Assembly (NCBI GenBank): GCA_051599415.1
Contig: AP039695.1
Coordinates: 62,001-126,000 of the forward strand
Length of the DNA stretch: 64,000 bases
Direction of reading: 5' to 3'
Source of the DNA: Savitreella phatthalungensis
Taxonomy: Eukaryota
The position numbers and the translations under genes were made by a program. Below the pieces are notes generated by a model. It made no database searches, had not been told where the DNA came from, and saw nothing but the letters and a program-made list of their open reading frames with translations. Of the stretch, positions 2,292-64,000 are shown piece by piece. Within the stretch, counting starts at the first letter, position 1. Every line of letters starts with the position of its first letter.

Positions 2292-3959
2292 TAACGGACG
2301 TCCCCTCGTGCGGCCTGATCGTGCTGCCTGATGAAGCCACAAGTCAGAGTCTTGAGACCGCGTGGAGAGATTTCCTGGTTGTTGCTGTCCCCTAGTCAGC
2401 GCCAAGGTCAGTTATCAATGTGTTGATCATCATGCCAGCTCCATATCACGTGCATAGCATGCCTTCTGTACCACGTCAATGCAGGGGTTGAAGATCACGG
2501 TGCTCACTCGTCTGAACATTCGAAAATTGACCTGTTCGGGATTCAGGAAGTTATTTACCCCAGAAGTAACCTGCTAATCAAATCGCAGTTGATCAGCTTC
2601 TGATCTCTAATCCGAATGGTGCAAGGATTGAAGTCATTCAAGGAGTTCGTAGCTCAGTATTTACTGTCTAGCTATGTTGTGAGCCTCCAGCGATTCGATT
2701 AAGGCAAGGGAAGGGGAGACCTCCCCATGTAAAGCCTGTCATGTAGGAACGACCGAATTTGCATGACGATTTGCCGTCATTGTGTGATTGTGTGTTGAGG
2801 TTTATGAGAATTTCTCTGGTGGCTGGAAAACAGGAATGTCTACTTGCAGTCTCGCGGCACGGGGTCAAGCCGTCCCATCCTCAGAACGGCCCGGAATCGA
2901 ATATCGCTAGGATAGGGTCATTTTTAAAGTCCTTGTTCAGCTAGGCGTCGAATGGCTGTGGTTGGATTCTTCTCATCTTTGATTATGGCTCGCGTCAAGC
3001 AACGATTGATGAGTCTGTGCCAACGAATTTCGTGACCAACAACCTGAAGATCGCTCTGATCTGGCAGCTTTGCTTGAGGCCCATTTGGCTTACATCCTCA
3101 TCGGATAAAAGCCATATCCGCATCTCGCATCTCAAATCTGACAGCTGAAAAATAAATTACCGCCTGCAAAGTAAACCGCTACCAGATACCCAACGCTCCC
3201 TGCGTACATTGCGCCGCTGTCTTCAGAGTCCCAGAGCGCTGGAATTCGTCAATTCCAAATGATAGTTTGATTGCTGACTTTGGGGACACAATTTATGCAC
3301 GCCACGGCCGACAGCAATGGGAAAGAGAGTCAAGCCAGCAGTTCACACGCGGCACGTCGATAAAGTGCGCGAAAAGACTGGGCAGCAGTCTCACATCGTC
3401 TGATCTCGTCACGTTTTTCCTCCTGGTTCTTACTCATACGAGGAGCAAGCAGATTATAATTCCAAGGTGGACCGTTGACTCTGAGCCGCGCCTGAGGGAA
3501 CACGCAGCTAGCGCAACGCGAGAAGCTGGAGAACAAAGCTGTGAAACAGATTCTCAGCGTCTCACGCGAACTTCCTAGTACAGTCGATTTGGTCATCAGC
3601 GTAGGCGCAGCACAATACAGCGCCTTCGGAAGCTGCGTTCACACCATCTAATAGCAGACTCAGGCCCACGAGGGACGACCAAGTCCATGAGTTCCGAACT
3701 CTGACCAGCTGATCTCTTGGTGATCTCTGGGTTTCTTTGGCACCTTGGCCTTCAGCTTGAAAAACGCTCGGCGAAGCGAGGCGAAAGCCCTCTGCCCTCA
3801 CAGCAATCGCCTCGCGTCTTTGCGCGTGGGCGGAGCGTATTGATACCATTAGCGAAGATTGACTCCCAGGTGCTGCTTGTGAAGACGTGATGCGTCTCAA
3901 GATACCTCAAATAATTTCCGGGCTCTGACTACCGCAAGCAGTATTGAAGGACCGTTGCG

Positions 3960-24170: not shown

Positions 24171-24583
24171 GACTGCTGAAGGCGACAGCTGAGAGCGCTA
24201 TCAGATGATGAGATTGCGCTGAAATGCACCAGCCTTTATAGTGCGGAAGCTATACACCGAGAGCGAGGCGTCGACAACGATACCGGCGGTTAGACAAGCA
24301 ATAACCCGTGGATGAGCAAGACAGTACGTAGAAAGAAGTGCCTGAAGATATTGTTTGATCATGATTGACATATCCAGCAGTATTTGATCTGATAATCACG
24401 TGACAAACGATACACCCGCGAGCGGTCTGATCGTTAGCTCGCAGCACATCGACCAAGAAGCAGCCAAGGGAGCATCACGGCTACAACGCCGTGTGTTGAT
24501 CAGACGTCATATACTGAGATTCTTCTCGTCGCAAATTCATGCTCTGATCCTCTTCAGTAGTCTCTGTCAACGACTGGACGAGG

Positions 24584-26074
24584 ATGGCCAAAAAATCGGC
24601 GCAGGACCTTCTAGCTGGCCTGGACGCCCTTCCGGATGATAGCACCCTTGCGGGTGCCAAGATCACGACAGATGCCGAATCCGGCCCGGTAGATGATGAG
24701 GCGTCTATCAACGACTTCTTAGCAGAGTTCAGTAAAGAGCGCGAACGACCCTCACGTCCGATCACACCAGCACTCGCGAGCAAAGGCGCCGGCGCTCGCA
24801 ACTCCCCACGTCCACAGCAGCAAGGTCGCGTCGCGGGAGCGAGTCGGAGCGCAAGCCTGGCGAGCGCTCCAGAGGACATCTCTGCACAGCGCAAGAGTAC
24901 AGACAGTACAAGATCTCGCGGATCAAATCGTGGCGCCGCGGGTCCAGGTGATGAAGTGCGTGCCTCGTCGTTGTCAAATTCGACTACAATGGCTGACGTT
25001 TCACTGGAATCATCGAAGAAAGAAGCGTCAGATGCAACCGCTGCAGCAAAAGAGCACAACGCTTCTACAGCTGGAGGTAGTAGCTGGGGCAGCTGGGGTT
25101 CCTCTTTGTGGTCTACGGCTACAAAAGTTCAGAGCCAATTGAGAAGTGAAGCTGAGCGCAGATTGGCTGAGTTACAAGCCTCTGAGGAGGCGCAACGACT
25201 TCAAAATCGCTTGCGCGAGCTCGATCTTTCCAAGCTAGCGAGTGAAGCGCAAAAGCTCGGATCGCGAGCATTAGAAGTTGTCGCCCCGCCTATCTCACGC
25301 TCGGAAACACTGAAGGTCCATGTTGTGCACGATCTGCGAGGCGTCCATGTTGAAGAAAATGTCGGAAGGGCTTTTGATCGAGCGATGGAGCAGGTCGAAG
25401 GCGGCAGACTACGCATTCACGCGGCCGATCTGCCAGCGCAATCACCGCGCCAGCCGATCGACCTAAATGCTGAGCCACCGGTGCTTGGGTACGACGAGGC
25501 TCGTAAGATGTGCGTGGCGGCAATCGACGCAGCACTCCGTGGCAAAGAGGATAAATCCGAGGCCGATGGTGCTAAGTCAGACGAAGCTGAGTCAGATGAG
25601 TCGGAGAAGGTCGCATCTTCCGGCGAAAGCGATATCTATGTGGCTATACAAGCCTTCGTCTACCATGAGACTTCAGAAGCCCTTACGCTCAGTCGTGCAC
25701 GGGTGACATCGCCCTCCACGGAAAAGCCAGATCCCACCTCACAGACCGGTAGTACTGGCACAATGAGCGCAGACGACAAGGCTGACGACGATGAATTCCC
25801 GGAAGAGCCAGAGCTCCATTTGCTTGTTCTTCTACGGGATCCCGAGAACGGCATCACGCTGTCAAGCGTATCGCAGGGCGTGCCGCCGTCGTGGGTCGAC
25901 TCATTGTCGAGAAAACGATTTGATCAGACTGCTTATCAACCTTCCGAATGGGTGTGCGAATTTGCAGACGAGGCACTCTCAGGCGTTGCGTCCGTGGTCG
26001 CTCAGCGGTATGTGGTCCGGCGGATGGGAATCGACCGCGCTTCGAGGGAGCAGGATCAACCGACGGAGACTTAG
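24584..26074 (+). CDS. MTC1: Mtc1-like (maintenance of telomere capping 1, DUF5427) protein
   Basis: Disordered N-terminus, WGSWGSSLWSTA, VAPPISRSETLKVHVVHDL and C-terminal SVSQGVP...EWV...VVAQRYV resemble fungal Mtc1. Confidence 0.7.
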   Translation: MAKKSAQDLLAGLDALPDDSTLAGAKITTDAESGPVDDEASINDFLAEFSKERERPSRPITPALASKGAGARNSPRPQQQGRVAGASRSASLASAPEDISAQRKSTDSTRSRGSNRGAAGPGDEVRASSLSNSTTMADVSLESSKKEASDATAAAKEHNASTAGGSSWGSWGSSLWSTATKVQSQLRSEAERRLAELQASEEAQRLQNRLRELDLSKLASEAQKLGSRALEVVAPPISRSETLKVHVVHDLRGVHVEENVGRAFDRAMEQVEGGRLRIHAADLPAQSPRQPIDLNAEPPVLGYDEARKMCVAAIDAALRGKEDKSEADGAKSDEAESDESEKVASSGESDIYVAIQAFVYHETSEALTLSRARVTSPSTEKPDPTSQTGSTGTMSADDKADDDEFPEEPELHLLVLLRDPENGITLSSVSQGVPPSWVDSLSRKRFDQTAYQPSEWVCEFADEALSGVASVVAQRYVVRRMGIDRASREQDQPTET

Positions 26075-30450: not shown

Positions 30451-32085
30451 ATGCATAGAGCGCTGCTTTTGTCACGGGTACGTGGACCCTCAACCACCGC
30501 AGCTCAAGCTGCTGCAAGGACATCTTCTGTTCCCTGCTTACCGGCGTCCTGGAGAACAGGCCACGCTTCCGCACGACAGATTACGACCTCGATTGACAGA
30601 TGTCGCAACAGCATATCGTATCTGACATCACGGGCTTATGCCACCACGTCCGACAAGGACGCTCCTTCAGAGAAGGACCGGTCAAAGGCGAAGCAGAACG
30701 ATGCCGATTCAGTCGACACACACGAGCGGCCTGTATCGGGCCTCAACGATCCAGCCAACAAGACCCTCTACAATGGTGAGTCTACAGGCAAGACGTCTTC
30801 CCAGACTGCTGCATCGACGGAATCTGACGCTGCAGCGGAACAATCGCATTCTACAGCAAGTACAGGAGAACAACCTGCTTCAGAAACCGTCGTGCCGCCG
30901 CAGCAGGATCCTGAGCTGCTCAACCTTCTCAAGTCGCTTGATGGAGGAAGCTCTGCTAATGATGATGACGGCGCTCGTCGACCATCGAACGGCGGAAATC
31001 GGAGTGACAACTACAAATCCTCAGCAGACATTAAACGCGAGCGCACTTTCAATGTCTTTGCAGGTCTGTCGGTGGTTGGTTTGATCGGAGGGATCCTCTA
31101 TCTGGGCCGTGAGACCGAAGATAGCGAAGTCAAGGGCTACAGTCCTGGGGCCTGGTGGTCACGAGTCAAGCGGAGCTTCACTGGTCAAATGGACTATTAT
31201 ACTGAGCCTGCATTCGAAAAGCTATTGCCCGATCCACTGCCAGAGCCATACCAGCGCAGATACACTCTCGTTCTCGACCTCGACGACCTGCTGATTCATT
31301 CGGAATGGACACGCGAACGTGGCTGGCGCACTGCCAAGCGACCTGGCCTTGATTACTTCCTCAGCTACCTGTCACAATATTACGAGATTGTTGTCTTCAC
31401 AAATCAGTATGCTGGCACTGCGCTTCCGGTGGTTCAGAAGCTCGACCCTTACCGGTCCTCACTCTCGGCGTCCTTGTTCCGCGAGTCTGCCAAATATGAG
31501 GACGGCAAGTTCATCAAAGATCTATCGTACATGAATCGTCCGCTGGAACGCATTATCCTGATTGACACGAATCCGGATGCTGCTTCCAAGCAGCCTGAAA
31601 ATGCGATCTTGCTCAAACCGTGGCACGGCGAGACAGGACCGAACTCAAATGCTCGCGACCTCATCAACCTGCTCCCATTCCTGGAGTACGTTGCAGCGGT
31701 AGAGGCACCGGATGTGCGATCGGTACTCAAATCTTATGCAGGCACGGACATTGCCGCTGAGTATATGCGACGTGAGGACGAGCTGCGCGCCAAGATTGCT
31801 GCAACTAGATCATCTTCCAAGTCATCGGGTTTCTTTGGAGGGGCAGGCGGCAAGAATGCGCGTCTGCCAGATGGTCGGCCGGAAATTTTCATGGATCAGC
31901 AGCGCGCACGAGCACAGAAGGCGCATGCGGAGTACATGCAATACCTGCGCGACAATGGCGAGAAGATGCTTGCGGAGGAGAAGCAGCGGGAAGAGGAGAT
32001 GCTGAAGGAGATGAAGACATCGCTCGTCGACTACTTCACCAAAGGCGCTCCACAGCCGCCGGGTCAGTCGCAACAGCAGCAGTGA
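30451..32085 (+). CDS. TIM50: mitochondrial import translocase subunit Tim50
   Basis: Arg/Ser-rich presequence, single TM helix, NIF/FCP1-like domain YTLVLDLDDLLIHSEW...GWRTAKRPG...KDLSYMNR. Confidence 0.95.
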   Translation: MHRALLLSRVRGPSTTAAQAAARTSSVPCLPASWRTGHASARQITTSIDRCRNSISYLTSRAYATTSDKDAPSEKDRSKAKQNDADSVDTHERPVSGLNDPANKTLYNGESTGKTSSQTAASTESDAAAEQSHSTASTGEQPASETVVPPQQDPELLNLLKSLDGGSSANDDDGARRPSNGGNRSDNYKSSADIKRERTFNVFAGLSVVGLIGGILYLGRETEDSEVKGYSPGAWWSRVKRSFTGQMDYYTEPAFEKLLPDPLPEPYQRRYTLVLDLDDLLIHSEWTRERGWRTAKRPGLDYFLSYLSQYYEIVVFTNQYAGTALPVVQKLDPYRSSLSASLFRESAKYEDGKFIKDLSYMNRPLERIILIDTNPDAASKQPENAILLKPWHGETGPNSNARDLINLLPFLEYVAAVEAPDVRSVLKSYAGTDIAAEYMRREDELRAKIAATRSSSKSSGFFGGAGGKNARLPDGRPEIFMDQQRARAQKAHAEYMQYLRDNGEKMLAEEKQREEEMLKEMKTSLVDYFTKGAPQPPGQSQQQQ

Positions 32086-32870
32086 GCTCCTTAATAAGCA
32101 CAAAGGCCACTTCCATGTTGCAGCTACGCCGGCATTATTTTGTAAACAGATCTGGCACCACGAGGTCAAACACTTTCAGTCTTTCACTCCTGAGGACCGC
32201 GCAATCGTTCTTAACGCTGCACCGCCTTCCATGCCATAAAAAGTTATTTCATGCATCCACCACTCAATACGGTGTCGAAATGATCGATTTGATTCTAGTC
32301 ACCTCTTTGAGTCATATGGGACGAACAATTGTTCCTCGTATCAAACAAGCTCTACCTATAGCTAGGTATCATCATTCTTGGCACTTCGGTGATTTGTTGT
32401 GCATCATCCCCACACGTCAAATCGGTGGGAGGTTCTGGACGCAGATGAGTGGGATCTCAAGGGGTCTCTCCGAGTAATTCCAATTCAGGAAAGTCTTTAC
32501 CGAGCTTACCACACAGAATAGGAGAGCCAATCTAGTGACATGAGCTCAACCAGAATGAGATTTGATTCTTCGAATCGAGCTTAAATGATATGCATAACCA
32601 ATAGATTGGACTGCCACTGGTCAATTCTGTCATACATGTGGACATAAATGATCGAGCCATGTGTCGATCGTGTCCATGCTTTCCATGTGAGATCTGCACA
32701 AAAAGCCGCTAATGCTATCCGTGTTCTTCGATCATGATGTCCTTACGCTAACAGCCGGGTCATGCCGGCCAGACATCTCTGGCAGAGGTGGTAGACAGAG
32801 TTTGGGTAGTTTATAGAAACAGTCCCGCGCCATTCTGTAGCCGCCTTCATCGTTTGGAAGGCTCTCAAGC

Positions 32871-35897: not shown

Positions 35898-37091
35898 ATG
35901 AAGCTGATCAGAAGACACCTGGAGAAGGATAAGTCCGGCTTCATGACTTTGTGTCCCGAGCAACCGGAGGACATGTGGCATACGTACAACCTTTTGCAAG
36001 TTGGAGACGTGCTCAAAGCGACCACAGTCCGGCGAGTCGTCCATGAGAGTGCCACGGGTACGACATCGTCCCAGAAGGTGAGGACAAATTTGTCCATCGT
36101 TGTGACAAAAGTCGACTTTGACGCACAGGCGAGCGCCTTACATGCTAATGGTACGGTCTGCGAGGAGAACGCGTATGCAAAACTCAACGCGCATCATACG
36201 CTCGACCTCGAGCTCAATCGCAACTTCACAATCAACAAACCTGAGTGGGATGCTTACGCGCTCGAGCGAGTCAACCTGGCCTGCGATCCAGCTCGGACAG
36301 CAGAGGTCGGCGCTGTGGTGCTGCAGGAAGGTCTGGCGCACATCTGCCTATTGACCGAGCACATGACGGTGACACGACTTCGGATAGAGCAGTCGATCCC
36401 GCGGAAAGTCAGAGGCTCTTCATCGCAGCACGACAAAAGTCTCGAGCGTTTCTATGACACTGTGTACGAGGGTGTTCGCAAACACTTGTTTGACGATGTG
36501 CCAGGCTCGGATGACAACGGAACCGATACTACTGGTCTGAAAGCTATTCTTATCGCCTCTCCAGGTTTTGTAGGGGAAGGCTTGGTCAAGCGAATGATGA
36601 CGCGTGCGACGAATGATGGGCGGAAAGACATCCTCCGTGCCCGTCCCAAGATTCTCTTGGTCCATTGCTCATCGGGTCATCTCTTTAGCCTCCACGAGGT
36701 TCTCAAGTCGCAGGAAGTGGTCTCACAGCTCGCGGACACGAAATATGCAAGGGAAGCGCAACTGATCGAGAAGTTTTACAGACAGATGAATGATGACGAG
36801 ACTCGAGCGTGGTACGGTCCCCAACACGTGGCGGCTGCTGTCGAGCATGGAGCCGTCGGAACGCTCCTTCTGACCGACACGCTCTTCCGCGCGGACAATG
36901 TCGCGACACGAAAGAAGTATGTAGCCATGTGCGACGCAGTAAAGCAAGCCGGTGGCTCAGTAGCCATTTTCTCCAGTCTGCATGAAACAGGCCAGCAGCT
37001 CGCACAGCTTGGCGAGATTGCCGCCATTCTCACAATTCCCCTGGCAGAGGACGACCTTGGACTCGGTGATCTGGATCTCGGTGCTGCTTGA
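35898..37091 (+). CDS. DOM34: ribosome rescue factor Dom34/Pelota
   Basis: MKLI...PEQPEDMWHTYNL, HHTLDLELNRNF, ASPGF, AWYG, GEIAAILTIP. ATG is at 35898. Confidence 0.96.
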   Translation: MKLIRRHLEKDKSGFMTLCPEQPEDMWHTYNLLQVGDVLKATTVRRVVHESATGTTSSQKVRTNLSIVVTKVDFDAQASALHANGTVCEENAYAKLNAHHTLDLELNRNFTINKPEWDAYALERVNLACDPARTAEVGAVVLQEGLAHICLLTEHMTVTRLRIEQSIPRKVRGSSSQHDKSLERFYDTVYEGVRKHLFDDVPGSDDNGTDTTGLKAILIASPGFVGEGLVKRMMTRATNDGRKDILRARPKILLVHCSSGHLFSLHEVLKSQEVVSQLADTKYAREAQLIEKFYRQMNDDETRAWYGPQHVAAAVEHGAVGTLLLTDTLFRADNVATRKKYVAMCDAVKQAGGSVAIFSSLHETGQQLAQLGEIAAILTIPLAEDDLGLGDLDLGAA

Positions 37092-37184
37092 GGTGTCTGC
37101 GAAATCTTCTCGCGCTATCGGGCAGTCGTATAGTCATGTATATTTGTACAATAGAGCATCTAGCTGGTCTGTGAAAGGTCCTTC

Positions 37185-37549
37185 TCACTCCTCATCAGAA
37201 TCAGGATACGGCACGAGCGCGAATTCTGGCTCGCTTTTGAGCTTCCAAACCAGGTGGCGGGTGCCATCGATGATGTCTGTGTCCGCTAATTGCGTGGCTG
37301 GGAGTGCTCCAGACTCGTCCAGAGAGCCCAGTTCGATATCTTGCAAGCTTTCTGGTGCGTTCGCTACATCTAGTGACTTAAGCACCTCCCAGAGCGAATT
37401 CTTTACGCTAGAAACCGTGGCGACAGTGTCAAGAGGTAGGAAGATGACTTGCTTGTCACGCTTTACTCGGAGTGTCCAGGCCGTTGTCTTGGATGGCTAG
37501 GATGCGTCAGTACAGTCCAGGGCAGTCGCTAGCGTTGAAAGCTCACCAT
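37185..37549 (-). CDS. small ubiquitin-like protein resembling Elongin B; exons 37549-37547 (ATG only) and 37496-37185, 104 aa
   Basis: ATG|GTGAGC...ACTGAC...CTAG defines a 50-nt intron (37546-37497). Spliced product: MPSKTTAWTLRVKRDKQVIFLPLDTVATVSSVKNSLWEVLKSLDVANAPESLQDIELGSLDESGALPATQLADTDIIDGTRHLVWKLKSEPEFALVPYPDSDEE. The gene model is better supported than the family call. Confidence 0.65.
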
Positions 37550-38124
37550 GATTGGACGTCTGAATGACACGGCGGAAGGTGGAGCTAGGTGACAAGCGCG
37601 GTGACGTCCTCTTTTGTCTCAGCGTATTCCTGCATCCGTCCATCGACTGGCTCGAGTGTGTTGTACCTCTGTCGCGAATTTGATCATGAAGAGATCAAAC
37701 TCAAATGTTTGATCAAATATCCCCGGTACAACTCTGCTAGTCACGTGTGTACGTGTCTAGCCACACATATCTGATTTGCGCCACGGTAAAGGAGAATTCA
37801 CAAATTTTTAGCAGTCCCACGCTCAGACTTTCACGAATTCAACTCTGACTTGACCTTTGTGAGATTTAGGCCATCAGAATTGCTCCATGGATGCATCCTC
37901 TAGGGACACACTCCCTATACGCACACAGTGTAGATTCTCACATCACCAACACTGGGCACGCCTGACACTCCCACCGGTCACTCACTGGTCACACTCAGCG
38001 GACCAGGTGGACTCTATACACACTCTCTCCTGAGCACGCACTCAGCCTCTACTATCCCTGAGCTAATCAACCAAACGCACAAGTTATCAGAATCCGACAT
38101 CTTATAGGAGACACATACATCAAC

Positions 38125-38625
38125 ATGCCTGGTACAACAGTTCGCGACGTCCCTGCGTCCAAGTTCATTGAGGCTTACGCCGCCTTCCTCAAGCGTTCCG
38201 GCAAGCTTGAGGTCCCTACATGGGTCGACACCGTCAAGACCGGTACTGCTAAGGAGCTCGCCCCCTACAACCCGGACTGGTAAGCGCGCCCTGCTCTGGT
38301 ACTGAGAGTATGTTGGCTTACCACTAACTTTTAATTTTACAGGTACTACGTTCGTGCTGCTGCAATTGCCCGTCACATCTACCTCCGCAAGTCGGTCGGT
38401 GTCGGAGCCCTGAAGAAGCTTCACGGTACTGCCATCAACCGTGGCAACCGTCCTTCTCACCACCGTGACTGCTCCGGCAGCGTTCAGCGCAAGGTCGTCC
38501 AGTCGCTCGAGAAGCTCGGCGTTCTCGAGATCTCTGACAACGGCGGTCGTCGCATCACCGAGCAGGGACAGCGCGACCTTGACCGTATCGCTACCTCTCT
38601 CGTCCAGGATGAGGATGACGAGTAA
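38125..38625 (+). CDS. RPS19: 40S ribosomal protein S19 (eS19); exons 38125-38279 and 38343-38625
   Basis: [66 protein letters not shown]...[16 protein letters not shown]. The 63-nt intron runs GTAAGC...CACTAAC...CAG. Missed by the ORF track. Confidence 0.97.
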
Positions 38626-43290: not shown

Positions 43291-45092
43291 TGCGGGTGTG
43301 TATGTCTTTGCTAGAGATTCTAGGTTGGCAGAAGATTACCTCGCAGTTGTAGGAATGTGTGAAGTAGCGCGAGAGATGTCTCTGGGCTCGCTCTCTAGAA
43401 AGGTCGGGGGATTTGGGAACTCGAGAAGGTGATGATGAATCCCGCCTCAGGAGCTTGCAGGCGATCGATGAAGGTTGCTCAAAGCTTTCGTGTGTGTTGT
43501 AGACGAGAGTGCAGAGAATGAAGTTCTGTGACGTTGGTCAATGTGGTGTTGCGTACGTGCATTGTGAGTGAACACGTGTGTATGTAAGTATGTGATAGAC
43601 GCGCGTCAGAATTGTTAGAGTCACTCTCAATTCTCTCCCCAAAAAAAATGATAGATTTACTGATGAGAATTATTAGATACGTACATGTACATGAACAATT
43701 TATGATTGCCGCTTGAATTTGAGAAGGATAGTGGCAAGTTGGCTGCTATCCTCCTGACGATTGTCTGTTGATGGACTGTTAGTCAAACGTTCTATCGACA
43801 GGTGCGAAAGAAAGATGCTGAGCCGATAAAAATCGTGAGATCATGGGAAGCTTACCTTGTCTGACAACCGGTGTTTCGTACGTTCTTGTCGTATGTGTGG
43901 AAGAGTTCTGTCTGTCGTGGATACCATGACCCACAGATGATACCACAGTCACCTCACTTCTGTGTCTGATGATTGTACTTGTACCACAGAATTCATCTCT
44001 AGCTCGTATCTGACCTGCTCTTGAGCCAGAGCCAGCGCCAGGTCCAGAGCCACAGAAGCCTGACTCGACCTGTATCCTGGTCCACTTGGGAGACTCTCCA
44101 GACATTTGAACCTCGAGCGTCAAAACTGATCGACTCTAGTTCCCGAACGACATACACGTTCTTCCTTCACTTTTGCATTCTATCTACGTGATGTGGCCGA
44201 TCAGGTTGTTGAAGCTCTTTGGATGTGAAAGCTGCTTGAGCGGATAAAGGTGGAGGATCTGTACTTGATGTTATGACCCACAAAAGGTATGTATGCATGT
44301 ATGTACAGAATGCATGCATGCATAGCATGTATGTTTGTATGTAGGGCAGGTATGTCCATGGTGAATTGAGTATGTGGGTGGTGGATGAATCCTGACGTAC
44401 GTCGAATGTGTTACAGATGCAGGCCCACCGACCTGTGCCAAATTAACTCACAAACACTAAATTTGGATATGCTCATATCAATTAGCCTTATCATATGAAT
44501 ATCATCAGTGCAACGTCTATGCAAAGAACCTAGATTCCAATAGAGTGGACTACTATAATCTGTGCAATCTGCATACTATACGGTCTTGGAATGATATATA
44601 GGATTAAAACAATTGATGACCCAATTCCAAAATTGAGATAAGCAGAAGCTGAAACGATCACGTGAGCATGTAAACAAAGGAGTTTGGCAAATGATCACGT
44701 ATCAATGCAATGCACATCAGCACAGTAACAGCAGCAGCAGCAGCACAAGCCATTACAGTCCCTTGGCAGGCACACACTCGCCCACGACACTCTCCTTCCG
44801 CATATCATATCTTTCCTCCTCCTCCTGATCCTTTCATCGTCATCGCCATCATCAGCCTGAGTCTAACAGTACACAAGTCGCCAGACTCTTCATAGCCCAG
44901 CGCCACTCTATCCTCATCCGCGAGTCTTAGATCCCAGGCTTGACGCGCCACTACCATTCTTGCCCACACAACGACATGACTAGGTAAGGGATATCCATCA
45001 TCACTGCTTCAATCGGCCTTTCCGTCGAACAGCTCGTGCAGTAATCGACTGCCAGCTTGCTTGCTTGTCTGTCTGCCTGCGCCGATCGCGCT

Positions 45093-46883
45093 ATGAGCTT
45101 CCTAAATATCCAACCGATGACTTCGGGAGACCCGCGCAAGGCCGGCGCAGAAGGTCTAGTCGGCGGAGATGTCGGCCGCTATAAGGTGGTCGTCCGCCGT
45201 CGCTCATTCTGGGAGACAATGCGCCTGTCTGGTCGTCAGGCGAATCGGCGATACCCGCACGAGGACATGCCAATCGACATCCCCGCACAGTCAACCCGGA
45301 TGCGCAACGATTCCTCTGCATCTCATTCGACTCTCGGCTACGGCTCCACCTGGTCTTCGACCGAGCAGCCACACACAACAGGCGGCATACCTCCTGCCGA
45401 TCACCTGGCTGCAGCCGCGGACGAGGAGACTTGGCTTTTGACGGGTTCCTTGCTAGAGCCACGCAGAGCATTGGTCGAGAGGACGCTGGCGTCTTGGACA
45501 AAACGCATGCTCGTATTTTACATCCTGCCGGCTGCAATCGTTCTCGCCTATGCGGCCATTCCGTTCCCGCTGTACGACGATGAGTCGCGCAGGTCTGGCG
45601 TTGTCACCACAAATTTCTGGTTCTTCCTCCTCATCTTCTATGGTTTTTACAACGCCGTCGGCCTCTTGTGGATCACGAAGCTCTTCAACCTGTTCGCCAT
45701 CAACTGGTGGCCACGCTCTCTAGGCGGCCCACTCGCCTTTGGCCTCTTCTGGGCAGTCTCACTCGCAGTCGGCTCACTCACATATGTCTTCAAGGACGAC
45801 TGGGGTACCTGGACGTTGACCTGGTCACTCCTGACGCTCTGTACACTCGCCATGCCCGTCTTCTTCGGTTTCTTCCACGTCCGCAGGGCACACAACGACA
45901 GGGTTCGAGCAAGTGTAATCTCCCGCCACGCGTCTGGCTCAACCGCAACGAACTCCTACCCTTCCCTGATCTCGGCACTGAACGTGTTCGACTCAGCCAG
46001 ACTCCCGAGGTCGTACAAGCGCTTCCTGTGGTTCGTGCTGCTATTGGCGATCGGCCTCGGCTCATTCGCGCTCGGTGAGGCATACGCATACTTGTGGCTG
46101 TCGACGCTGCCGCACGGTCCAGCGGACACGCTCCTGTACGTGTACACGTGGGTGGGTGTGATCTACACGCTCGACTTTGTGACTGGGTTGGTCGTCGACA
46201 GATACATCGACTCGTACCCGCTCCTGTTCATGTTCAAGCTCTACTACGCCCTCACACACCAAATCTACGTCCGAAACCTGTACGCGCGCATGCACACCCC
46301 TGAGCAATTCGCCCTCCTCCAAGGCGCGTCCTCCCTCCTGACAGTCGTCGTCACTCCCGTGGTCATGCACGGATGGACTCACTACATCGCCAGCCAACTG
46401 TCATACTCGCCAGTATCCTTATCGACCTGGCGTCGAAACGCCGCTCGATCGTTCTACGTGAAATCGTGGGCTGCGAATTTCACCATGATTGCATTCCTCG
46501 GCTGGTGCACCATCCTCTACCTCGGTCCCAACAGGCGGGCCTACCCGTACTTTGACTTCGATTCGCCACTACCCACACCTATCACCACCACCTCCACCTC
46601 CATCGACTGGGACAGACTCCGTCGACCTGGCTCATGGAAGCCGACGACCGGTGACGATCTGTTCAGATTGACGATCGGTGCTAGTGTGTGCGTTTGGTTG
46701 TGTGAAGGTGTGTCTCGGTGGCTTGCCAAGTTGGTCCTGCGGGCGATGTACGGCGTTCGGCCTGAGCGAGAGCTTCGCAGAGATCTCCGGAGATTCCCAG
46801 ACCTACTTCCAGCATCAGTCGTCCTCCTCGTCTTCGTCGCAATCAATATGCTCATGGCTACCGTCAGAGTCGCCTTCCACTGA
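45093..46883 (+). CDS. uncharacterised multi-pass membrane protein
   Basis: About 600-aa ORF with roughly 10 or more hydrophobic segments and strong C-ending codon bias. An alternative in-frame start is possible: ATG 44976 with an intron at 44984-45055 (GTAAGG...CAG). Confidence 0.8.
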   Translation: MSFLNIQPMTSGDPRKAGAEGLVGGDVGRYKVVVRRRSFWETMRLSGRQANRRYPHEDMPIDIPAQSTRMRNDSSASHSTLGYGSTWSSTEQPHTTGGIPPADHLAAAADEETWLLTGSLLEPRRALVERTLASWTKRMLVFYILPAAIVLAYAAIPFPLYDDESRRSGVVTTNFWFFLLIFYGFYNAVGLLWITKLFNLFAINWWPRSLGGPLAFGLFWAVSLAVGSLTYVFKDDWGTWTLTWSLLTLCTLAMPVFFGFFHVRRAHNDRVRASVISRHASGSTATNSYPSLISALNVFDSARLPRSYKRFLWFVLLLAIGLGSFALGEAYAYLWLSTLPHGPADTLLYVYTWVGVIYTLDFVTGLVVDRYIDSYPLLFMFKLYYALTHQIYVRNLYARMHTPEQFALLQGASSLLTVVVTPVVMHGWTHYIASQLSYSPVSLSTWRRNAARSFYVKSWAANFTMIAFLGWCTILYLGPNRRAYPYFDFDSPLPTPITTTSTSIDWDRLRRPGSWKPTTGDDLFRLTIGASVCVWLCEGVSRWLAKLVLRAMYGVRPERELRRDLRRFPDLLPASVVLLVFVAINMLMATVRVAFH

Positions 46884-47051: not shown

Positions 47052-48486
47052 TTATGGCCGCTTGTCCTGGTTTTTGTCTTGACGAGCGTCGTTGTCGGCA
47101 TCGAGGTCGTCTTGTGCTGTGCCTCCGAGGTTTTCTCTTGGGACTTCCTGCATCTGGACGGATGGTGCAAAGACTGTGTGCCTTAAGTTTTCCCTGACCT
47201 GGGTGAGGATCTTGTCGAGGTAGTCGCGCGAGTTCATGTTGTCCATGTTGGAAGGCCGGACGTCTAGCTTGTAGTCAGGTCCAAAGTACTCGTAGTAGTC
47301 GTTGAAGGGGATCTCTGACGAAGGCTCCTCCCCAACAAGCAATCCCGTCTCATACGTCCACGTCCGAGACACGTTCCGCATCGTGTAGCCACCACCGCCG
47401 AGGATCAAGGTCGGCAGGCCGAATTTCTTCACAAACGCCACACACGCAGCGTGGCCGCGCATCGATAGGTTGAAGCACCCTAGACGATCACCCGACAGCG
47501 AGTCTGCGCCACACTGGAGGACGACTGCACCAGGCCGGTAAAAGTCCATGATGGCCTGGATCGTCGGCTGGAAGACAGAGGCGTAGGTCTCGTCTGTGAT
47601 GCCGTCGCGCAGGGGGAAATTGACACTGTACATTTTACCCTTGCCGACGCCGACGTCCCGGAGCTCGCCCGTGCCAGGGAAGTACTCTCCGTATTTGTGG
47701 AAGGAGCACGTCATGACGCGGTCTGTGGTGTAGAAGGCTTCTTCGACACCGTCTCCGTGGTGGACGTCGATGTCGATGTACAGCACACGGTTGTAGTACC
47801 GGAGGAGCTCGATGATGCCGAGCACGATATCGTTCACATAGCAGAATCCTGAGGCTTCACTTTTCTTTGCATGATGAAGACCACCTGCCCAGTTCAGGGC
47901 AATGTCACACTTGCCCCTGTTGAGTCGCGCTGCACCCTCCATGGAACCTCCACCGGAGATTCCGCAAAATTCAAATAAGCCGTCAAAGACAGGACAGTCA
48001 TCGCCGACGTTGACTTGAGAAAGAGGTCAGTAAAGAGACCAAGGGTTGGGAAGACCTGGAAAGGAATAAAGTATGACTTACATCGACCTTGCTCTTTTGC
48101 AAAGTTGTCCATGTTTTCTGGTGTGACTTTTGAGAGGAACTCGACGTATTCGTCTGTATGGAACTGGCACATTTCCTGCTTTGTTGCTGGCTTTGCCCTG
48201 TAGATCTCCATCTTTTTGTATAGACCGTAGTTCATGATGAGGGCGTGTGTCATGCGGATGCGATGTGGTTTCATTGGGTGTCCTGCACCGTAGGCGTAGT
48301 TGCCCACATCGGAGTCATAGAAATATGCGACCTCTGTTTATGATGTGTTAGTCTACCTTGACCGGGAGGGGAGATCTGCATGTAAAAGGGAAACATACTT
48401 GGCTTGGAGACGCCATTCTGAGCGATCGGCTCAAGGAGAGATCCCTGCTGCTGACCTGCACTGCTGAAGGTCGGCAGCGATTCCAT
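47052..48486 (-). CDS. RPD3: class I histone deacetylase Rpd3/Clr6; exons 48486-48399, 48333-48082, 48013-47052
   Basis: [28 protein letters not shown]...[13 protein letters not shown]...[21 protein letters not shown]...DIDVHHGDG...GGGGYT. Introns of 65 nt (GTATGT..CAG) and 68 nt (GTAAGT..AAG). Confidence 0.95.
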
Positions 48487-48566: not shown

Positions 48567-49509
48567 GTGCTGATTGTGATGTGCGCGCAGATCTACCTCT
48601 TCTCGAGCGTGATGGGTGTGTGAGAGCTAATAGAAGCACAGTCGAGTAGCTCGCTGGCTGGCTTGATGAATGTTTGAGTATCTTTGCTTTGTCTTCAAGA
48701 GAGGCTGGTTGAGTAATGTGGATCAGCGTGGATGAGATGGGGGATGAGTATGGGTGAAGGTGTGAGCGTAGAGTGCAATTATGGAGAGAGACAGAGACAA
48801 AGCCTGAAGCGTTCTTTTGGATCAAACACGTGATTGAATATCTGTTCTTGTTCTTCTCACTTAAATTAGTTTGTGTGAATGCATGGATGGTGTATCAGGA
48901 TAGTCAGCTATAGCTAGCTAAATTATATGTATATATACTATACTGATACATCTCTAAAGATTAAAATGCCTCAATATATGTAGCTTTATATTCAGGTGAT
49001 CTACTGGAAAGCTATACAGATGCTATTGCTTTTCTAAGGATCACTTCATATTTCCTTAATTCCAAAGTCTGATCAAGTGAAATGTTTGTTGAGTCACGTG
49101 TACGCCACCATCAAAAAAGATTTATCATCTAGCACGTGCATCTTTCTAGGGTAAGTTCCCCTGATCCACTTACCATCATCCATCCACTACCACTACCACT
49201 ACCATCACACTCATTCCCTACTCTCCTCCCAGGGTCTACGTCTCTCTCCTACTCTCTTCCTCTGTTGTTTCCCCCTCCACAAGAGCGCCTGATCAACTGT
49301 GCTAGACTTCTCGGTAACTCGGTGGCTTCTTCTAGAAGACAAATCTCCAAAGACATCAGGAAACCCCGGCTTCTTCGTACTCAAAGAGTCGCATCAAATA
49401 ACTTAGGTCTCTCCCTTCTCACCACCTAGTTACCTCGAACCTCCTCCTCATCATCATCAATATCTCTCGACTCTCCTAGATCAACCTTTGATTCCGTCCA
49501 AAGATCAAA

Positions 49510-51408
49510 ATGACCTCAAACGGATACCTCGACCCGAAGGACGCAGAGTCGGTCCTTGCCACCTATCCTTCTCGTGATGGCGCCTCAGCTGCCGAGCTCA
49601 TGGCAGACGCAGGACAGAACGGTCTCACCTACCAGGATCTCCTCGTCCTCCCAGGCTTCATCGACTTTGGCGCAAAGGACGTCTCCCTCGAATCACGCGT
49701 CACACGCAACATCGTCCTCAAGACTCCTTTCATGTCCTCACCCATGGACACAGTTACCGAGAGTGACATGGCCATCAACATCGCGCTCCTCGGCGGTATC
49801 GGTATAATTCACCACAACAACACAGCAGAGGAACAGGCAGCCATGGTCAAACTCGTCAAGAAGTTTGAGAACGGATTCATCGTTGACCCCATCGTCCTCT
49901 CACCGTCAGCTAAGGTTAGTGACGTCCGCCGCATCAAGGAGACCGCTGGCTTCTCCGGACTACCCGTCACAGGTAAGTTGATCCTTCCACAAACATTCAC
50001 CCTCATGTAAGCTCGCTATTCGTCCGACCCTTCCATCAACCTCTTGTTCTTTCCTCGGTATTCTTGCTGGGCAGCGATGAACAACCCTTGATTTCATTAA
50101 CTTTCGTTCTACCGTAAAGGCTGAAAACGGCCTTGGGGAGAAATAAGACAACGTTGCTGAGCCTACGAGAAGCATGTCCGAGAGGAACAAGAAGCCGAGC
50201 ATTGGAAGAGAGAGGAAACAATCTTGTACATGACGGCCGAGTGCTAGATTTTCCATGAAGGAGTCCATACTGACAGAAGCTTAGACACCGGCAAGCTTGG
50301 TGGCAAATTGCTCGGCATTATTACTTCCCGCGACGTCGCCTTCCACTCAGACCTCAACTCACCTGTGTCTGAAGTGATGACGACAAACCTGGTGACCGCT
50401 CAGCAGGGCATCGCTCTCAAGGAAGCCAACGAGATCCTTCGCAAGTCCAAGAAGGGAAAGCTGCCGATCGTCGACGCTGACGGCAACCTTCGCGCCCTGC
50501 TCTCGCGCTCCGACCTGATGAAGAACCTGAACTTCCCGCTCGCTTCCAAGCTGCCGGAATCCAAGCAGCTTTACTGTGGTGCTGCGATTGGCACGCGTGA
50601 GCACGACCGCGCTCGCCTCGCCCTCCTGGCAGAGTCGGGACTCGACCTCGTCGTCCTCGATTCATCCCAGGGCAACTCCGTCTTCCAGATCGAGATGGTC
50701 AAGTGGATCAAGGCCAACCACCCACAGATCGACGTGATCGCAGGCAACGTCGTCACGCGCGAGCAGGCCGCAAAGCTGATCGCAGCAGGCGCAGACGGTC
50801 TCCGAGTCGGTATGGGCTCCGGCTCGATCTGTATCACTCAGGAAGTCATGGCGTGTGGCCGGCCGCAGGCGACCGCCGTTTACCAGGTCTCTGAATTCGC
50901 TTCCCGATTCGGCGTGCCTACAGTCGCCGACGGTGGTCTTAAGAACGCCGGCGATGTGGTCAAGGCACTCGCACTCGGCGCATCAGCCGTCATGATGGGA
51001 TCGATGCTGGCAGCCTGCTCTGAGGCTCCCGGAGACGTGATCTACCAGAACGGTCAGCGTGTCAAGGTGTACCGCGGCATGGGCTCGATTGCCGCGATGG
51101 AGCACCAGAAATCTCAAACGGCAGACAACGCCGCCGCCGGCCGATACTACTCTGAGGACGACAACATCCGCGTCGCCCAGGGCGTCACTGGCTACGTCGC
51201 AGAGAAGGGCTCGATCAGAGAGTACCTGCCATACCTGAACACTGCCATCCAGCACTCGATGCAGGACATCGGCGTCCGTTCACTCAACCTCCTCCGCTCA
51301 GGCACGCGCGAAGGCACAGTCCGCTTCCAGCTCAGATCTTCAGCAGGTATTCTCGAAGGTGGCGTCTCAGGCCTCTCGTCCGTCAACAAGCAGCTCTACT
51401 CTGCCTAA
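49510..51408 (+). CDS. gua1: inosine-5'-monophosphate dehydrogenase; exons 49510-49972 and 50285-51408
   Basis: [12 protein letters not shown] pair, DSSQGNS, catalytic [22 protein letters not shown]. The 312-nt intron GTAAGT...ACTGAC...TAG restores [16 protein letters not shown]. Confidence 0.96.
50069..50164 (+). ncRNA. snR54: intron-encoded box C/D snoRNA, snR54/SNORD59-like (18S rRNA 2'-O-methylation guide)
   Basis: C-like box GCGATGA 50074-50080. Guide TAACTTTCGTTCT 50098-50110 is complementary to conserved 18S AGAACGAAAGUUA. D box CTGA 50157-50160, short GGC/GCC terminal stem, and flanking intronic stem 50043-50058/50178-50191. Host is IMPDH, as for S. cerevisiae snR54 in IMD4. Confidence 0.8.
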
Positions 51409-61208: not shown

Positions 61209-64000
61209 ATGAACAAGGAAAACGTTCCAGCAACACCTACCTTTACCACCTCCGGCTCATCTCGCAAGAGGGCAAAGTCATTCTCGACACCGCCATCTGC
61301 AAAGGCTCCACCCACAAAGACTGCACGCGGTATTCTGAAAGGTTCTGCATATGGTGGAGATGATGCACATACTATTGCTTTCATCCCCGTTCATTCTGCT
61401 TCGAAGCAGGAAAAGAAGACGGAATCAGCAGAGAAGCGTCGCAAATCTCTGGCTCGTCGCGTCTCTTTTGCCTCCCATGCCAGCGTCAGACTCTTTGAGA
61501 AACCGGGCGAGTCACCGCCGACGACCCCTCAGCAAGCGGAAGCTGCAGCCAGCCAAGCAGACGCCCGCAATACCAACACGGCTTCTCCTGCACAGCCAAG
61601 CTCAGCACAGCAGACACCACCTCGCCGGTCTCCACGCAAGTCACCAGCACGCTCTCCGCTTCCTGGCAAGAAGCAGACCCCACAGAAGTCTGCACGCGCT
61701 GGAGTCAAAATTGCTTCTCCAGCACCGCCGAGCCTGACAGACACTGCTGCCATTGAGGATGACGAAGATGATGGAGGAGACGCTCCGAGCATGGACGAGA
61801 TCACAATGGACCTTACCGGCATTGTCAACGCCCCTCGCCCAGCAAGCGGTACTCCAAAACTCACCCGCACGCGTCCTTCCTTTGGCGCGGACGCAGTGCG
61901 CGATGTGTTGGCTGGCGACGACAGCGCTCTCGACAGCGAAGAAGACGAGGAGGACGTCAACGATGCCGATGACGCCGTTCAACAGGTAGACTCTGGTGAT
62001 GACGACGATGACGATGATGATGCACTTGCCGAGCGCGGACTCCAGGAAGACGATACTCAGGCCATGGACATGACCGAGACCCTGTCCCCGGCAGTCCGCC
62101 GTGCCAATGCTTCCGCCACACCATCCCTCCCGCTCTCTGCGGCCTCGCTTCTCCCGCCAAAGTCGCCGATCCAGCGCATCATGGACGGTGAGTCTCCGCG
62201 TCGCTCGCCACGTCGTTCTCCCCGACGTTCCGTTGGTGCTAGTCGTGCAGACGAGACTGCTGAGGAGATGTCGATGATCTCCATGTCCATGGTCGATGCC
62301 ACCGTCTTACACGACTCGGGCGATATGGAGGCCGATGAATCCAGTATGGACATCACACAGGCACTAGGTCAGATCCAGCCGCCGATTGCAACTCCGCGCT
62401 CTGCAGGTCGATCATCGCAGCAGGGCGGATCGCCGCTCAAACGCAACATTTTTGACGATTTTCCCAACCCACCAGCCCAGCAGGCCGAGGAAGAAGACGA
62501 CATGACTCTAGATACCGGCATGGACCTCACTCGCGTCATCGGCGGAATCGTTCCGCCAAGTGGCAATCTCCTCGCTCTTCCGACCACTGAGGAGCAGGAT
62601 GAAGATGATGCTGATGAGTCTTCTGCAGACGTACTCGCCACACAGGACATGACGGTCGATATGACGGTCAACATGGACGAGACGCGGGTTTTTTCTTCCA
62701 CTCGTGAGGACCAAACCGGCTACACCATCGCCACAGAAGTCGACACGACTCAGCAACTATACGACTACTCGGCCACTGAAGTCGACGCTGGCAATGTCAC
62801 GCAAGCGATGGACATGACCATGGTCTACGGTGCCGGTATCAAACCGAAGTCGCCAGCAGTCCCGCGCAAGACCGCACTCACACCCATCAAGAGCGTCGGC
62901 TTTGACTGGGGCAACCTGCGTGGACAGCAGTCGCCAGCGGATGTCAGCATGGCAGATCTCACCTGCGACGATGTCACACAGAACATGGACATGACGCAGA
63001 TCGTCATGCCATCATCTCGGCCTGTCCAACTCAGCGCCGGCGTTCCTGAAGAGGAGGAAGCTGATGCGGACGAGTCCGCAGACATGGACATGACCATGGC
63101 CATGCCAGCCATCCTCGCTCGTGCGTCGCCCGCCAAGCAAAGCCCGGTTCGACGATTGAGCACAGGCGCAAAGCGATCGCCACTCAAGGACTCCGTCGTA
63201 ACCGCCGAAGGCACTGCGATCGCATCCGCATCCGCATCTGCAAGCGTAACACCGATCAAGCAGACCATCGCGACTATCGAGACTCCGACGACCAACAAAG
63301 CACTCAAGCTGGCTACGCCTCGTGCTCGCCAATCCCTTGCTGACAGTCCGATTCCACGCTTCGGCACACCAGCGGCGGCCTCGGCCGTCCGGTCAGTCGT
63401 CCGAGACAGCACCGAGTTTGGATCGCATCTGTTAACGAAACCGACTGAATCGCAGCTCCGCGTGAGCGTGCTCAAGGACAAGATCGCGCAGATGACACCC
63501 AAGAAGGCAGCAGACAATCTCTCGTCAGGCCCGTCCACGCCTCTCGCAGCCCAACCTGCAAGCGCGAGCGCAGCACGCATGTCTGCGCTTCGTAACGCCA
63601 TCGCTGCAGCATCTCCAGCACAAACACCCGTGCCAGTCAACGCTGCCATTGCTTCCCCATCGAGGACACCAGCTCGCACACCAATGCTGACGACAGCCAC
63701 TATCCTGTCTGCAAAGCAACACACCCCAGCTCCCCGACAGCCATCTCCATCACGGCTGCCTATCTCAGCAGCTCAGGCTGCAAGTGCGAAGAAGTCGCCA
63801 ACGAAAGCTCCATCCATCCAGCGCCCTGCTCACATTCAGCTCTCCGAGACAGAGTCGATCCCGATCAACGACGAAACGGCTACACCAACGCGACCAATCT
63901 CGCAAGCTGCACCACCGTCCAGCACACGTCCAGCGCTCACGCCACTACGTACTCCAGCTCGGGCGCCAACGACCATCACACGGACGCCGAGGACGGCGCC
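61209..64000 (+). CDS. spc7: kinetochore scaffold Spc7/Spc105/KNL1 (5' part, runs off the window)
   Basis: MNKEN start, PP1-docking RGILK and RRVSFA motifs, MELT-like repeats MDLT/MDMT/MDIT at 61806, 62064, 62346, 62520, 62808, 62985 and 63084. It is absent from the ORF track, consistent with no stop before the edge. Confidence 0.9.
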   Translation, partial: MNKENVPATPTFTTSGSSRKRAKSFSTPPSAKAPPTKTARGILKGSAYGGDDAHTIAFIPVHSASKQEKKTESAEKRRKSLARRVSFASHASVRLFEKPGESPPTTPQQAEAAASQADARNTNTASPAQPSSAQQTPPRRSPRKSPARSPLPGKKQTPQKSARAGVKIASPAPPSLTDTAAIEDDEDDGGDAPSMDEITMDLTGIVNAPRPASGTPKLTRTRPSFGADAVRDVLAGDDSALDSEEDEEDVNDADDAVQQVDSGDDDDDDDDALAERGLQEDDTQAMDMTETLSPAVRRANASATPSLPLSAASLLPPKSPIQRIMDGESPRRSPRRSPRRSVGASRADETAEEMSMISMSMVDATVLHDSGDMEADESSMDITQALGQIQPPIATPRSAGRSSQQGGSPLKRNIFDDFPNPPAQQAEEEDDMTLDTGMDLTRVIGGIVPPSGNLLALPTTEEQDEDDADESSADVLATQDMTVDMTVNMDETRVFSSTREDQTGYTIATEVDTTQQLYDYSATEVDAGNVTQAMDMTMVYGAGIKPKSPAVPRKTALTPIKSVGFDWGNLRGQQSPADVSMADLTCDDVTQNMDMTQIVMPSSRPVQLSAGVPEEEEADADESADMDMTMAMPAILARASPAKQSPVRRLSTGAKRSPLKDSVVTAEGTAIASASASASVTPIKQTIATIETPTTNKALKLATPRARQSLADSPIPRFGTPAAASAVRSVVRDSTEFGSHLLTKPTESQLRVSVLKDKIAQMTPKKAADNLSSGPSTPLAAQPASASAARMSALRNAIAAASPAQTPVPVNAAIASPSRTPARTPMLTTATILSAKQHTPAPRQPSPSRLPISAAQAASAKKSPTKAPSIQRPAHIQLSETESIPINDETATPTRPISQAAPPSSTRPALTPLRTPARAPTTITRTPRTA

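Follow-up and report, generated by a model that had tools for sequence, protein, structure and literature searches.

The window, that is, the whole stretch of 64,000 nucleotides that was analyzed, is intron-poor, has a G+C content of 53%, and carries ordinary housekeeping genes. On its reverse strand, at positions 37185..37549, lies a small gene with a predicted product of 104 aa that is flanked by the gene for RPS19 (eS19) and a gene of the Pelota/Dom34 type. The RPS19 gene is encoded on the forward strand by two exons (38125-38279 and 38343-38625) that are separated by a 63-nt intron and both match the Ribosomal_S19e model of Pfam (E values of 2.9e-18 and 3e-31). A first-pass annotation of this DNA, made from the sequence, placed the small gene head-to-head with RPS19, and these domain matches confirm the arrangement: the two genes diverge from a common intergenic region (37550..38124) and their ATGs are 575 bp apart. 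On its other side the small gene converges with the Pelota/Dom34-type gene (35898..37091, forward strand, start approximate), which matches the Pfam models eRF1_1, eRF1_2, and eRF1_3. The stop codons of the two convergent genes (37089-37091 on the forward strand and 37185-37187 on the reverse strand) have 93 bp between them (37092-37184), and the 3' UTRs of these genes almost certainly overlap as antisense transcripts.

Several other loci in the window deserve a brief description. The genes for IMP dehydrogenase (49492-51405, forward strand) and a histone deacetylase (HDAC; 47055-48337, reverse strand) are each represented by two ORFs and are, therefore, two of the few genes in the window that contain introns. 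Long ORFs that do not match any Pfam model at E ≤ 1e-5 are found at 45045-46880 (forward strand, 612 aa) and 61644-62306 (reverse strand, 221 aa), and further ORFs of this kind at 62828-63772 (reverse strand, 315 aa) and 31809-32474 (forward strand, 222 aa), the last of which overlaps the end of an ORF for a NIF phosphatase in a different frame. In an 894-aa ORF (3948-6629, forward strand), two cyclic-nucleotide-binding domains occur alongside F-box/LRR-type leucine-rich repeats. Such a combination is unusual, and the product might be a cNMP-regulated ligase adaptor.

The small gene is predicted to consist of two exons, all on the reverse strand. Exon 1 is the start codon ATG alone (37547..37549) with an A at position -3. 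It is followed by an intron of exactly 50 nt (37497..37546), delimited by reading the sequence and by enumeration of splice signals, that has GTGAGC as its 5' splice site (37546-37541), a branch-type TACTGAC (37512-37506) whose A at 37507 precedes the 3' end by 10 nt, and TAG as its 3' splice site (37499-37497). The coding part of exon 2 (37188..37496) comprises 103 codons for residues 2-104 and is terminated by a TGA stop codon (37185..37187); translation of the predicted spliced product, therefore, gives 1 + 103 = 104 aa. An ATG-only first exon, a 50-nt intron, and a 104-aa product had been proposed in the first-pass annotation, together with the remark that the ORF track shows only the last 66 aa of the protein. 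The sequence and its translation agree with the former for a predicted splice, and the latter is equally accurate in that a plain ORF list of the exon-2 frame contains just one GTG-started ORF of 66 aa (37185..37385). The exon-2 frame has no Met codon and, immediately upstream, runs into the TAG that is also the 3' splice site; a spliced start is, therefore, the sole route to its translation.

The splice signals of this gene are distinctive within the window. ATGGTRAGY, the motif formed by an ATG that is directly followed by a consensus donor, has three occurrences in the 64 kb when both strands are counted. One of them lies within the NIF-phosphatase ORF, and only the site at 37549 is followed by a YAG that has a branch motif 5-40 nt ahead of it and a long ORF behind it. 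The intron of the neighboring RPS19 gene, with its 63 nt, displays the local splice style as GTAAGC...CACTAAC...CAG. We enumerated all combinations of ATG, GT, and AG in 37150-38124 that read stop-free into the exon-2 frame and obtained 106 models, among which 37546 is the only donor with the consensus GTRAGY. When this donor is combined with the ATG at 37549, the first AG past the branch site is used; when it is combined with the upstream ATG at 37643, this AG must be skipped. Models that start at the upstream ATGs 37896, 37768, 37687, 37643, and 37635 with other donors were rejected as well, and the reasons for rejecting upstream starts are either nonconsensus donors or the skipping of the branch-proximal AG together with deletion of the first predicted strand of the protein. 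On the same strand, the ATG at 37643 opens an upstream ORF of 48 codons in the exon-2 frame that ends at the TAG doubling as the acceptor (37497-37643), and the ATG at 37635 opens an ORF of 16 codons; both would be uORFs if they are located within the transcribed 5' UTR.

Codon usage in exon 2 is that of a real gene. Using log-odds trained on the 18 Pfam-confirmed ORFs of the window, we obtained a score of +21.0 bits for exon 2 (+0.204 bits per codon), which corresponds to the 48th percentile of 100 real-gene windows of 103 codons each and is reached by 2 of 500 off-frame control windows (0.4%). The five other frames over the same stretch, including the open antisense frame, score from -0.08 to -0.67 bits per codon. 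We also scored 764 stop-to-stop ORFs with a minimum of 45 codons, and outside known genes only 13 of them exceed 8 bits; exon 2 is one of these and ranks directly after one exon of the HDAC gene and the two exons of RPS19. An ATG-started antisense ORF of 172 aa (36982..37500, forward strand), which spans the small gene and the end of the Dom34 gene, was considered as a candidate and rejected as noncoding given its score of -0.08 bits per codon over the exon-2 stretch; it is probably a side effect of codon composition on the other strand.

The lineage from which this DNA derives can be gauged from another gene of the window. The closest named relatives of a DUF5427/MTC1-like protein (24548-26071, forward strand) are from Taphrina deformans (42% identity) and Protomyces lactucae-debilis (38% identity), and its best match overall has an identity of just 48%. 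Judging from these protein similarities, the host most likely belongs to an early-branching, sparsely sampled lineage of ascomycetes that has no closely related sequenced member. The assignment to the ascomycetes that was part of the earlier claim about the small gene is supported by these Taphrina and Protomyces matches.

To collect relatives of the 104-aa protein, we performed an exhaustive phmmer search against 1.84 billion representative proteins at E ≤ 0.001, which returned three matches. One of these, P0002, is the 104-aa protein itself (100% identity over Met plus exon 2), a public sequence with NCBI as its source that is encoded on a contig of 635,393 bases. The first-pass description of the gene as hidden and unannotated, therefore, has to be abandoned because exactly this protein is already available as a public prediction. 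The public sequence agrees with the gene model of the first-pass annotation, but it could in turn stem from ab initio gene prediction and is hence no independent proof of the splice. The second match, P0003, is an 88-aa protein from another organism that is 47% identical over residues 17-103 (E value of 2.4e-17) and looks like an ORF-only call that is missing its N-terminus. The third, P0004, was set aside as a family member since it is an 830-aa tandem-repeat protein in which eight short matching stretches represent a low-complexity artifact. A word-indexed search with the 104-aa protein and then with a two-sequence profile yielded P0002 and P0003 and no further members. In metagenomes, a peptide-pattern scan matched 299 stretches, none of which was confirmed by tblastn, and a scan with a degenerate DNA pattern of the conserved C-terminal motif found no occurrences. 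The 104-aa protein and P0003 have in common the motifs I-F-x-P-x-D-x-V-x-T, E-L-G-x-L-x-x-S-G-x-L-P-A-T, D-G-x-R-x-L-V-W-K, and E-P-x-F-x-L-x-x-Y-P, the last being followed by an acidic end. Because the divergence of P0003 (47% identity) is about the same as that of the MTC1-like protein (48% identity), we attribute it to ordinary purifying selection and not to a decaying or spurious ORF. The family looks orphan and its homologs are scarce because the ascomycete lineage is deep and poorly sampled.

Known families were not recognized at the level of sequence. No Pfam family, PF00240 included, matched the 104-aa protein or P0003 at E ≤ 10. Against the chain sequences of the PDB, a search with the single protein gave one chance match to a RIPK2 chain (E value of 0.93), and a search with the two-sequence profile gave no match at E ≤ 10.

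An AlphaFold2 model, built on an alignment of two sequences, has a mean pLDDT of 65.3 and a pTM of 0.55; the five models range from 60.9 to 65.3 in pLDDT and no residue exceeds 90. The predicted elements are strands at residues 7-14 and 17-23, a helix at 29-43, strands at 56-60 and 82-86, and an extra strand at 93-98, which is the order of elements of a beta-grasp fold (beta-beta-alpha-beta...beta) plus one C-terminal strand. On the basis of this model and the fold searches, a ubiquitin-like (beta-grasp) core would extend over residues ~7-86 (37242..37481, reverse strand) and be followed by a C-terminal extension of residues 87-104 (37188..37241, reverse strand) that contains the additional strand predicted at 93-98 and a conserved Tyr-Pro and has an acidic end. 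The confidence of the model in this extension is low (block pLDDT of 59 and 43).

Fold searches with this model consistently led to ubiquitin-like domains. A Foldseek search against the PDB gave no match at E ≤ 0.001; the best match is the ubiquitin-like domain of NFATC2IP (E value of 0.043), and the matches listed are mostly ubiquitin-fold domains. VIA-align against 48,161 representative chains gave 734 with Z ≥ 2, 65 with Z ≥ 5, and none with Z ≥ 8, bearing in mind that values below 8 may reflect merely a common arrangement of elements. The best 50 of the 65 chains with Z ≥ 5 are nearly all RA, FERM-F1, ubiquitin, and ubiquitin-like domains with Z of 5.1-6.2. In a VIA-align re-run on the best 996 chains from Foldseek, 399 have Z ≥ 5, with an RA domain (Z 6.6), ubiquitin variants, and ISG15 in the lead. 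The recognition value of the protein in the ESM Atlas is 3162 compared with a mark of 2300, and all ten of its ten best named clusters belong to the ubiquitin family or clan, a result that is likewise obtained for a third of shuffled proteins. Regarding the beta-grasp fold implied by the first-pass annotation, the topology is thus predicted by AlphaFold2 and by three fold searches, and the scores are weak throughout (pLDDT of 65, Z of 5-6.6). A ubiquitin-like beta-grasp fold is likely for the 104-aa protein as modeled.

The C-termini of the 104-aa protein and P0003 consist of Tyr-Pro and an acidic run with no Gly-Gly. Past residue 79 of the 104 there is no Gly at all, so the C-terminal Gly or Gly-Gly through which conjugatable modifiers, Urm1 and Atg12 among them, undergo activation by E1 is absent, and the protein is, therefore, not conjugatable like ubiquitin, NEDD8, and SUMO. 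Ubiquitin, NEDD8, and ISG15 share the predicted beta-grasp topology with it, and many such modifiers are among its best structural matches (Z of 5.9-6.3, rmsd of 2.3-2.9 Å over 66-72 residues); however, only 11-17% of the structurally aligned residues are identical, and the 104-aa protein differs from them in lacking Gly-Gly and a PF00240 match and in having an extra C-terminal strand. Hub1/UBL5 is a small free ubiquitin-fold protein that functions by noncovalent binding and not by conjugation, and the model resembles 4pyu_A with a Z of 5.6 in VIA-align; in contrast, Hub1 has 73 aa and is highly conserved across eukaryotes, whereas the protein described here has 104 aa, is orphan, and carries a C-terminal extension. 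The highest Z values are obtained for the beta-grasp domains RA (2c5l, 6.2-6.6) and PI3K ABD (5.9-6.2) which, unlike the 104-aa protein, are domains inside large signaling proteins. Because these values lie within 1 unit of those for ubiquitin, they indicate the shared superfold alone.

The non-conjugatable C-terminus leads us to propose that the 104-aa protein would act as a stand-alone, noncovalent ubiquitin-fold subunit or adaptor of some complex, in a manner that may be likened to that of Elongin B or Hub1. The leading candidate for its partner would be Elongin C; no Skp1_POZ protein was found among the ORFs scanned in the 64-kb window. Taken as a whole, it is probable that the locus is a genuine two-exon gene for a small acidic protein with a beta-grasp fold and a short C-terminal extension that is not conjugatable and serves as a noncovalent subunit or adaptor.

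The components of this interpretation can be weighed against other explanations, the most radical of which is that there is no functional coding gene, the open frame and splice signals being fortuitous and the public protein an ab initio overprediction. The product is indeed very short, its first exon measures 3 nt, and the family comprises two members only. However, exon 2 lies at the median for real genes in its codon usage, a value that only 0.4% of off-frame controls reach; the product is 47% identical to a protein from another organism, motifs being conserved along 87 residues, and the similar divergence (48%) of the MTC1-like neighbor suggests purifying selection of ordinary strength; and the consensus arrangement of ATG, donor, branch site, and acceptor is unique. 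We, therefore, regard a non-gene as very improbable and hold with high probability that the gene is real, has two exons, and has already been predicted publicly. An explanation that accepts the gene would have it encode a fast-evolving, lineage-restricted small protein that is unrelated to ubiquitin-fold proteins, with the model and its structural neighbors being artifacts of a shallow alignment and of a common small alpha/beta pattern. Such an explanation is compatible with the finding that neither Pfam nor the PDB recognizes a family by sequence, with the pLDDT of 65 and pTM of 0.55, with fold matches that all fall below the trust levels of the respective tools, and with the third of shuffled proteins that obtain ten of ten family-consistent Atlas matches. 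It accounts less readily for the near-uniformity with which three separate fold searches match ubiquitin-fold domains, the sequence pattern of the helix and the last core strand, the conservation of hydrophobic core positions between the 104-aa protein and P0003, and an Atlas recognition value (3162) above 2300, and we consider it unlikely.

A more specific identity had been put forward in the first-pass annotation, namely, that the gene encodes an ascomycete Elongin B. The protein would then be a highly diverged Elongin B ortholog that binds the Elc1 of the species via its beta-sheet and C-terminal extension, and the pair would be an Elongin BC adaptor that serves BC-box proteins, for example Elongin A, on a cullin, a module that in budding yeast operates without Elongin B; we consider this identity possible and, on balance, doubtful. 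The likeness to animal Elongin B (ELOB/TCEB2) lies in a stand-alone, acidic ubiquitin-fold protein of ~100-118 aa that has no Gly-Gly and ends in a short C-terminal extension past the core. The 104-aa protein corresponds to this description in its size of about 100 aa, its acidic character, its predicted stand-alone ubiquitin fold without Gly-Gly, its extra strand, and a conserved aromatic-Pro past the last core strand, an architecture that by itself is not diagnostic of the family. In the structural work described in a section of PMC10591846, Elongin B is used as an ordered unit of residues 1-104, which matches the size of the protein. The nearest named cluster in the ESM Atlas is 'Transcription elongation factor B polypeptide 2', ahead of the generic ubiquitin clusters, with a score of 0.89 and 145 of 256 features; however, scores below 0.9 are in the range of leads only, and 145 of 256 features is below the number for typical true members. 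An early-branching lineage of Ascomycota could, moreover, have retained ancestral genes that were lost in budding yeast. The original proposal drew on an ungapped alignment with what was presumably the human Elongin B sequence, in which we count 10 identical residues of 34 by eye. This alignment and the Atlas cluster are the only pointers that are specific to Elongin B.

Against an Elongin B identity stands that the 104-aa protein has no HMMER-detectable similarity to the Elongin B chains of the PDB and, as modeled, does not have Elongin B as a preferred structural neighbor. Although the PDB sequence set that we searched includes many Elongin B chains, none was matched at E ≤ 10 by phmmer or by the profile hmmsearch against all PDB chain sequences, and PF00240 was not matched even though it covers 88% of the Atlas Elongin B cluster. 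Elongin B is likewise absent from the best 50 of the 65 and the best 50 of the 399 VIA-align chains with Z ≥ 5. A 106-residue chain, 7cjb_B, which we take to be probably an Elongin B chain, is found at rank 31 of the Foldseek matches with an E value of 0.26 and a TM score of 0.39 for a query model whose quality is too low for these structural ranks to weigh for or against Elongin B. An ancestral Elongin B would also be expected to be distributed more widely than two known members, although further members of the family could be hidden where ATG-only exons were not called, or by the size of the database.

The literature on Elongin B provides a further context. A section of PMC3355856 points out the resemblance of Elongin B to ubiquitin and of Elongin C to Skp1. 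As reported in a passage of PMC4509718, BLAST analysis identified a yeast homolog of Elongin C and no Elongin B counterpart, and a table in PMC2785787 has an entry for S. cerevisiae that reads Cul3-Elongin C-Elongin A; these parts of the two papers agree with the earlier statement that S. cerevisiae has no recognized Elongin B. The corresponding part of PMC2785787 also regards Elongin complexes with Cul2 and Cul5 as confined to animals, and Elongin is called conserved among metazoa in a passage of PMC10716050, and the treatment of Elongin BC cullin ligases as specific to animals in the one and the conservation among metazoa in the other both speak against an Elongin B in this organism. Human VHL, according to an excerpt of PMC7660911, forms aggregates in fission yeast unless the human Elongins B and C are co-expressed. 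In open-licence papers and preprints, we found no description of Elongin B in Dikarya fungi. If the protein were a diverged Elongin B that has been kept and paired with Elc1 in early-branching ascomycetes, an Elongin BC module would exist in Dikarya, which we put forward tentatively and at considerably less than even odds. Such a module, in the same guarded sense, could have been lost in model yeasts or been overlooked there through ATG-only first exons. We conclude that the Elongin B idea is a reasonable and testable hypothesis for which the present support consists of leads only. The best-supported reading, resting as it does on a predicted fold, is that of an orphan, non-conjugatable ubiquitin-fold protein that may function as a noncovalent subunit or adaptor.

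If the protein is merely an orphan with a ubiquitin fold, then it would represent one more small family in the large set of non-conjugated ubiquitin-like adaptors, and its gene would illustrate how ATG-only first exons conceal small genes from ORF-based views of a genome and probably from many annotations. If it is paired with Elongin C, the accepted view that fungal Elc1 works without Elongin B would have to be revised, the Elongin BC adaptor would, with a member within Dikarya, be dated before the split between animals and fungi, and this lineage would offer a simple fungal system in which to study the contribution of Elongin B to ligases based on Elongin C.
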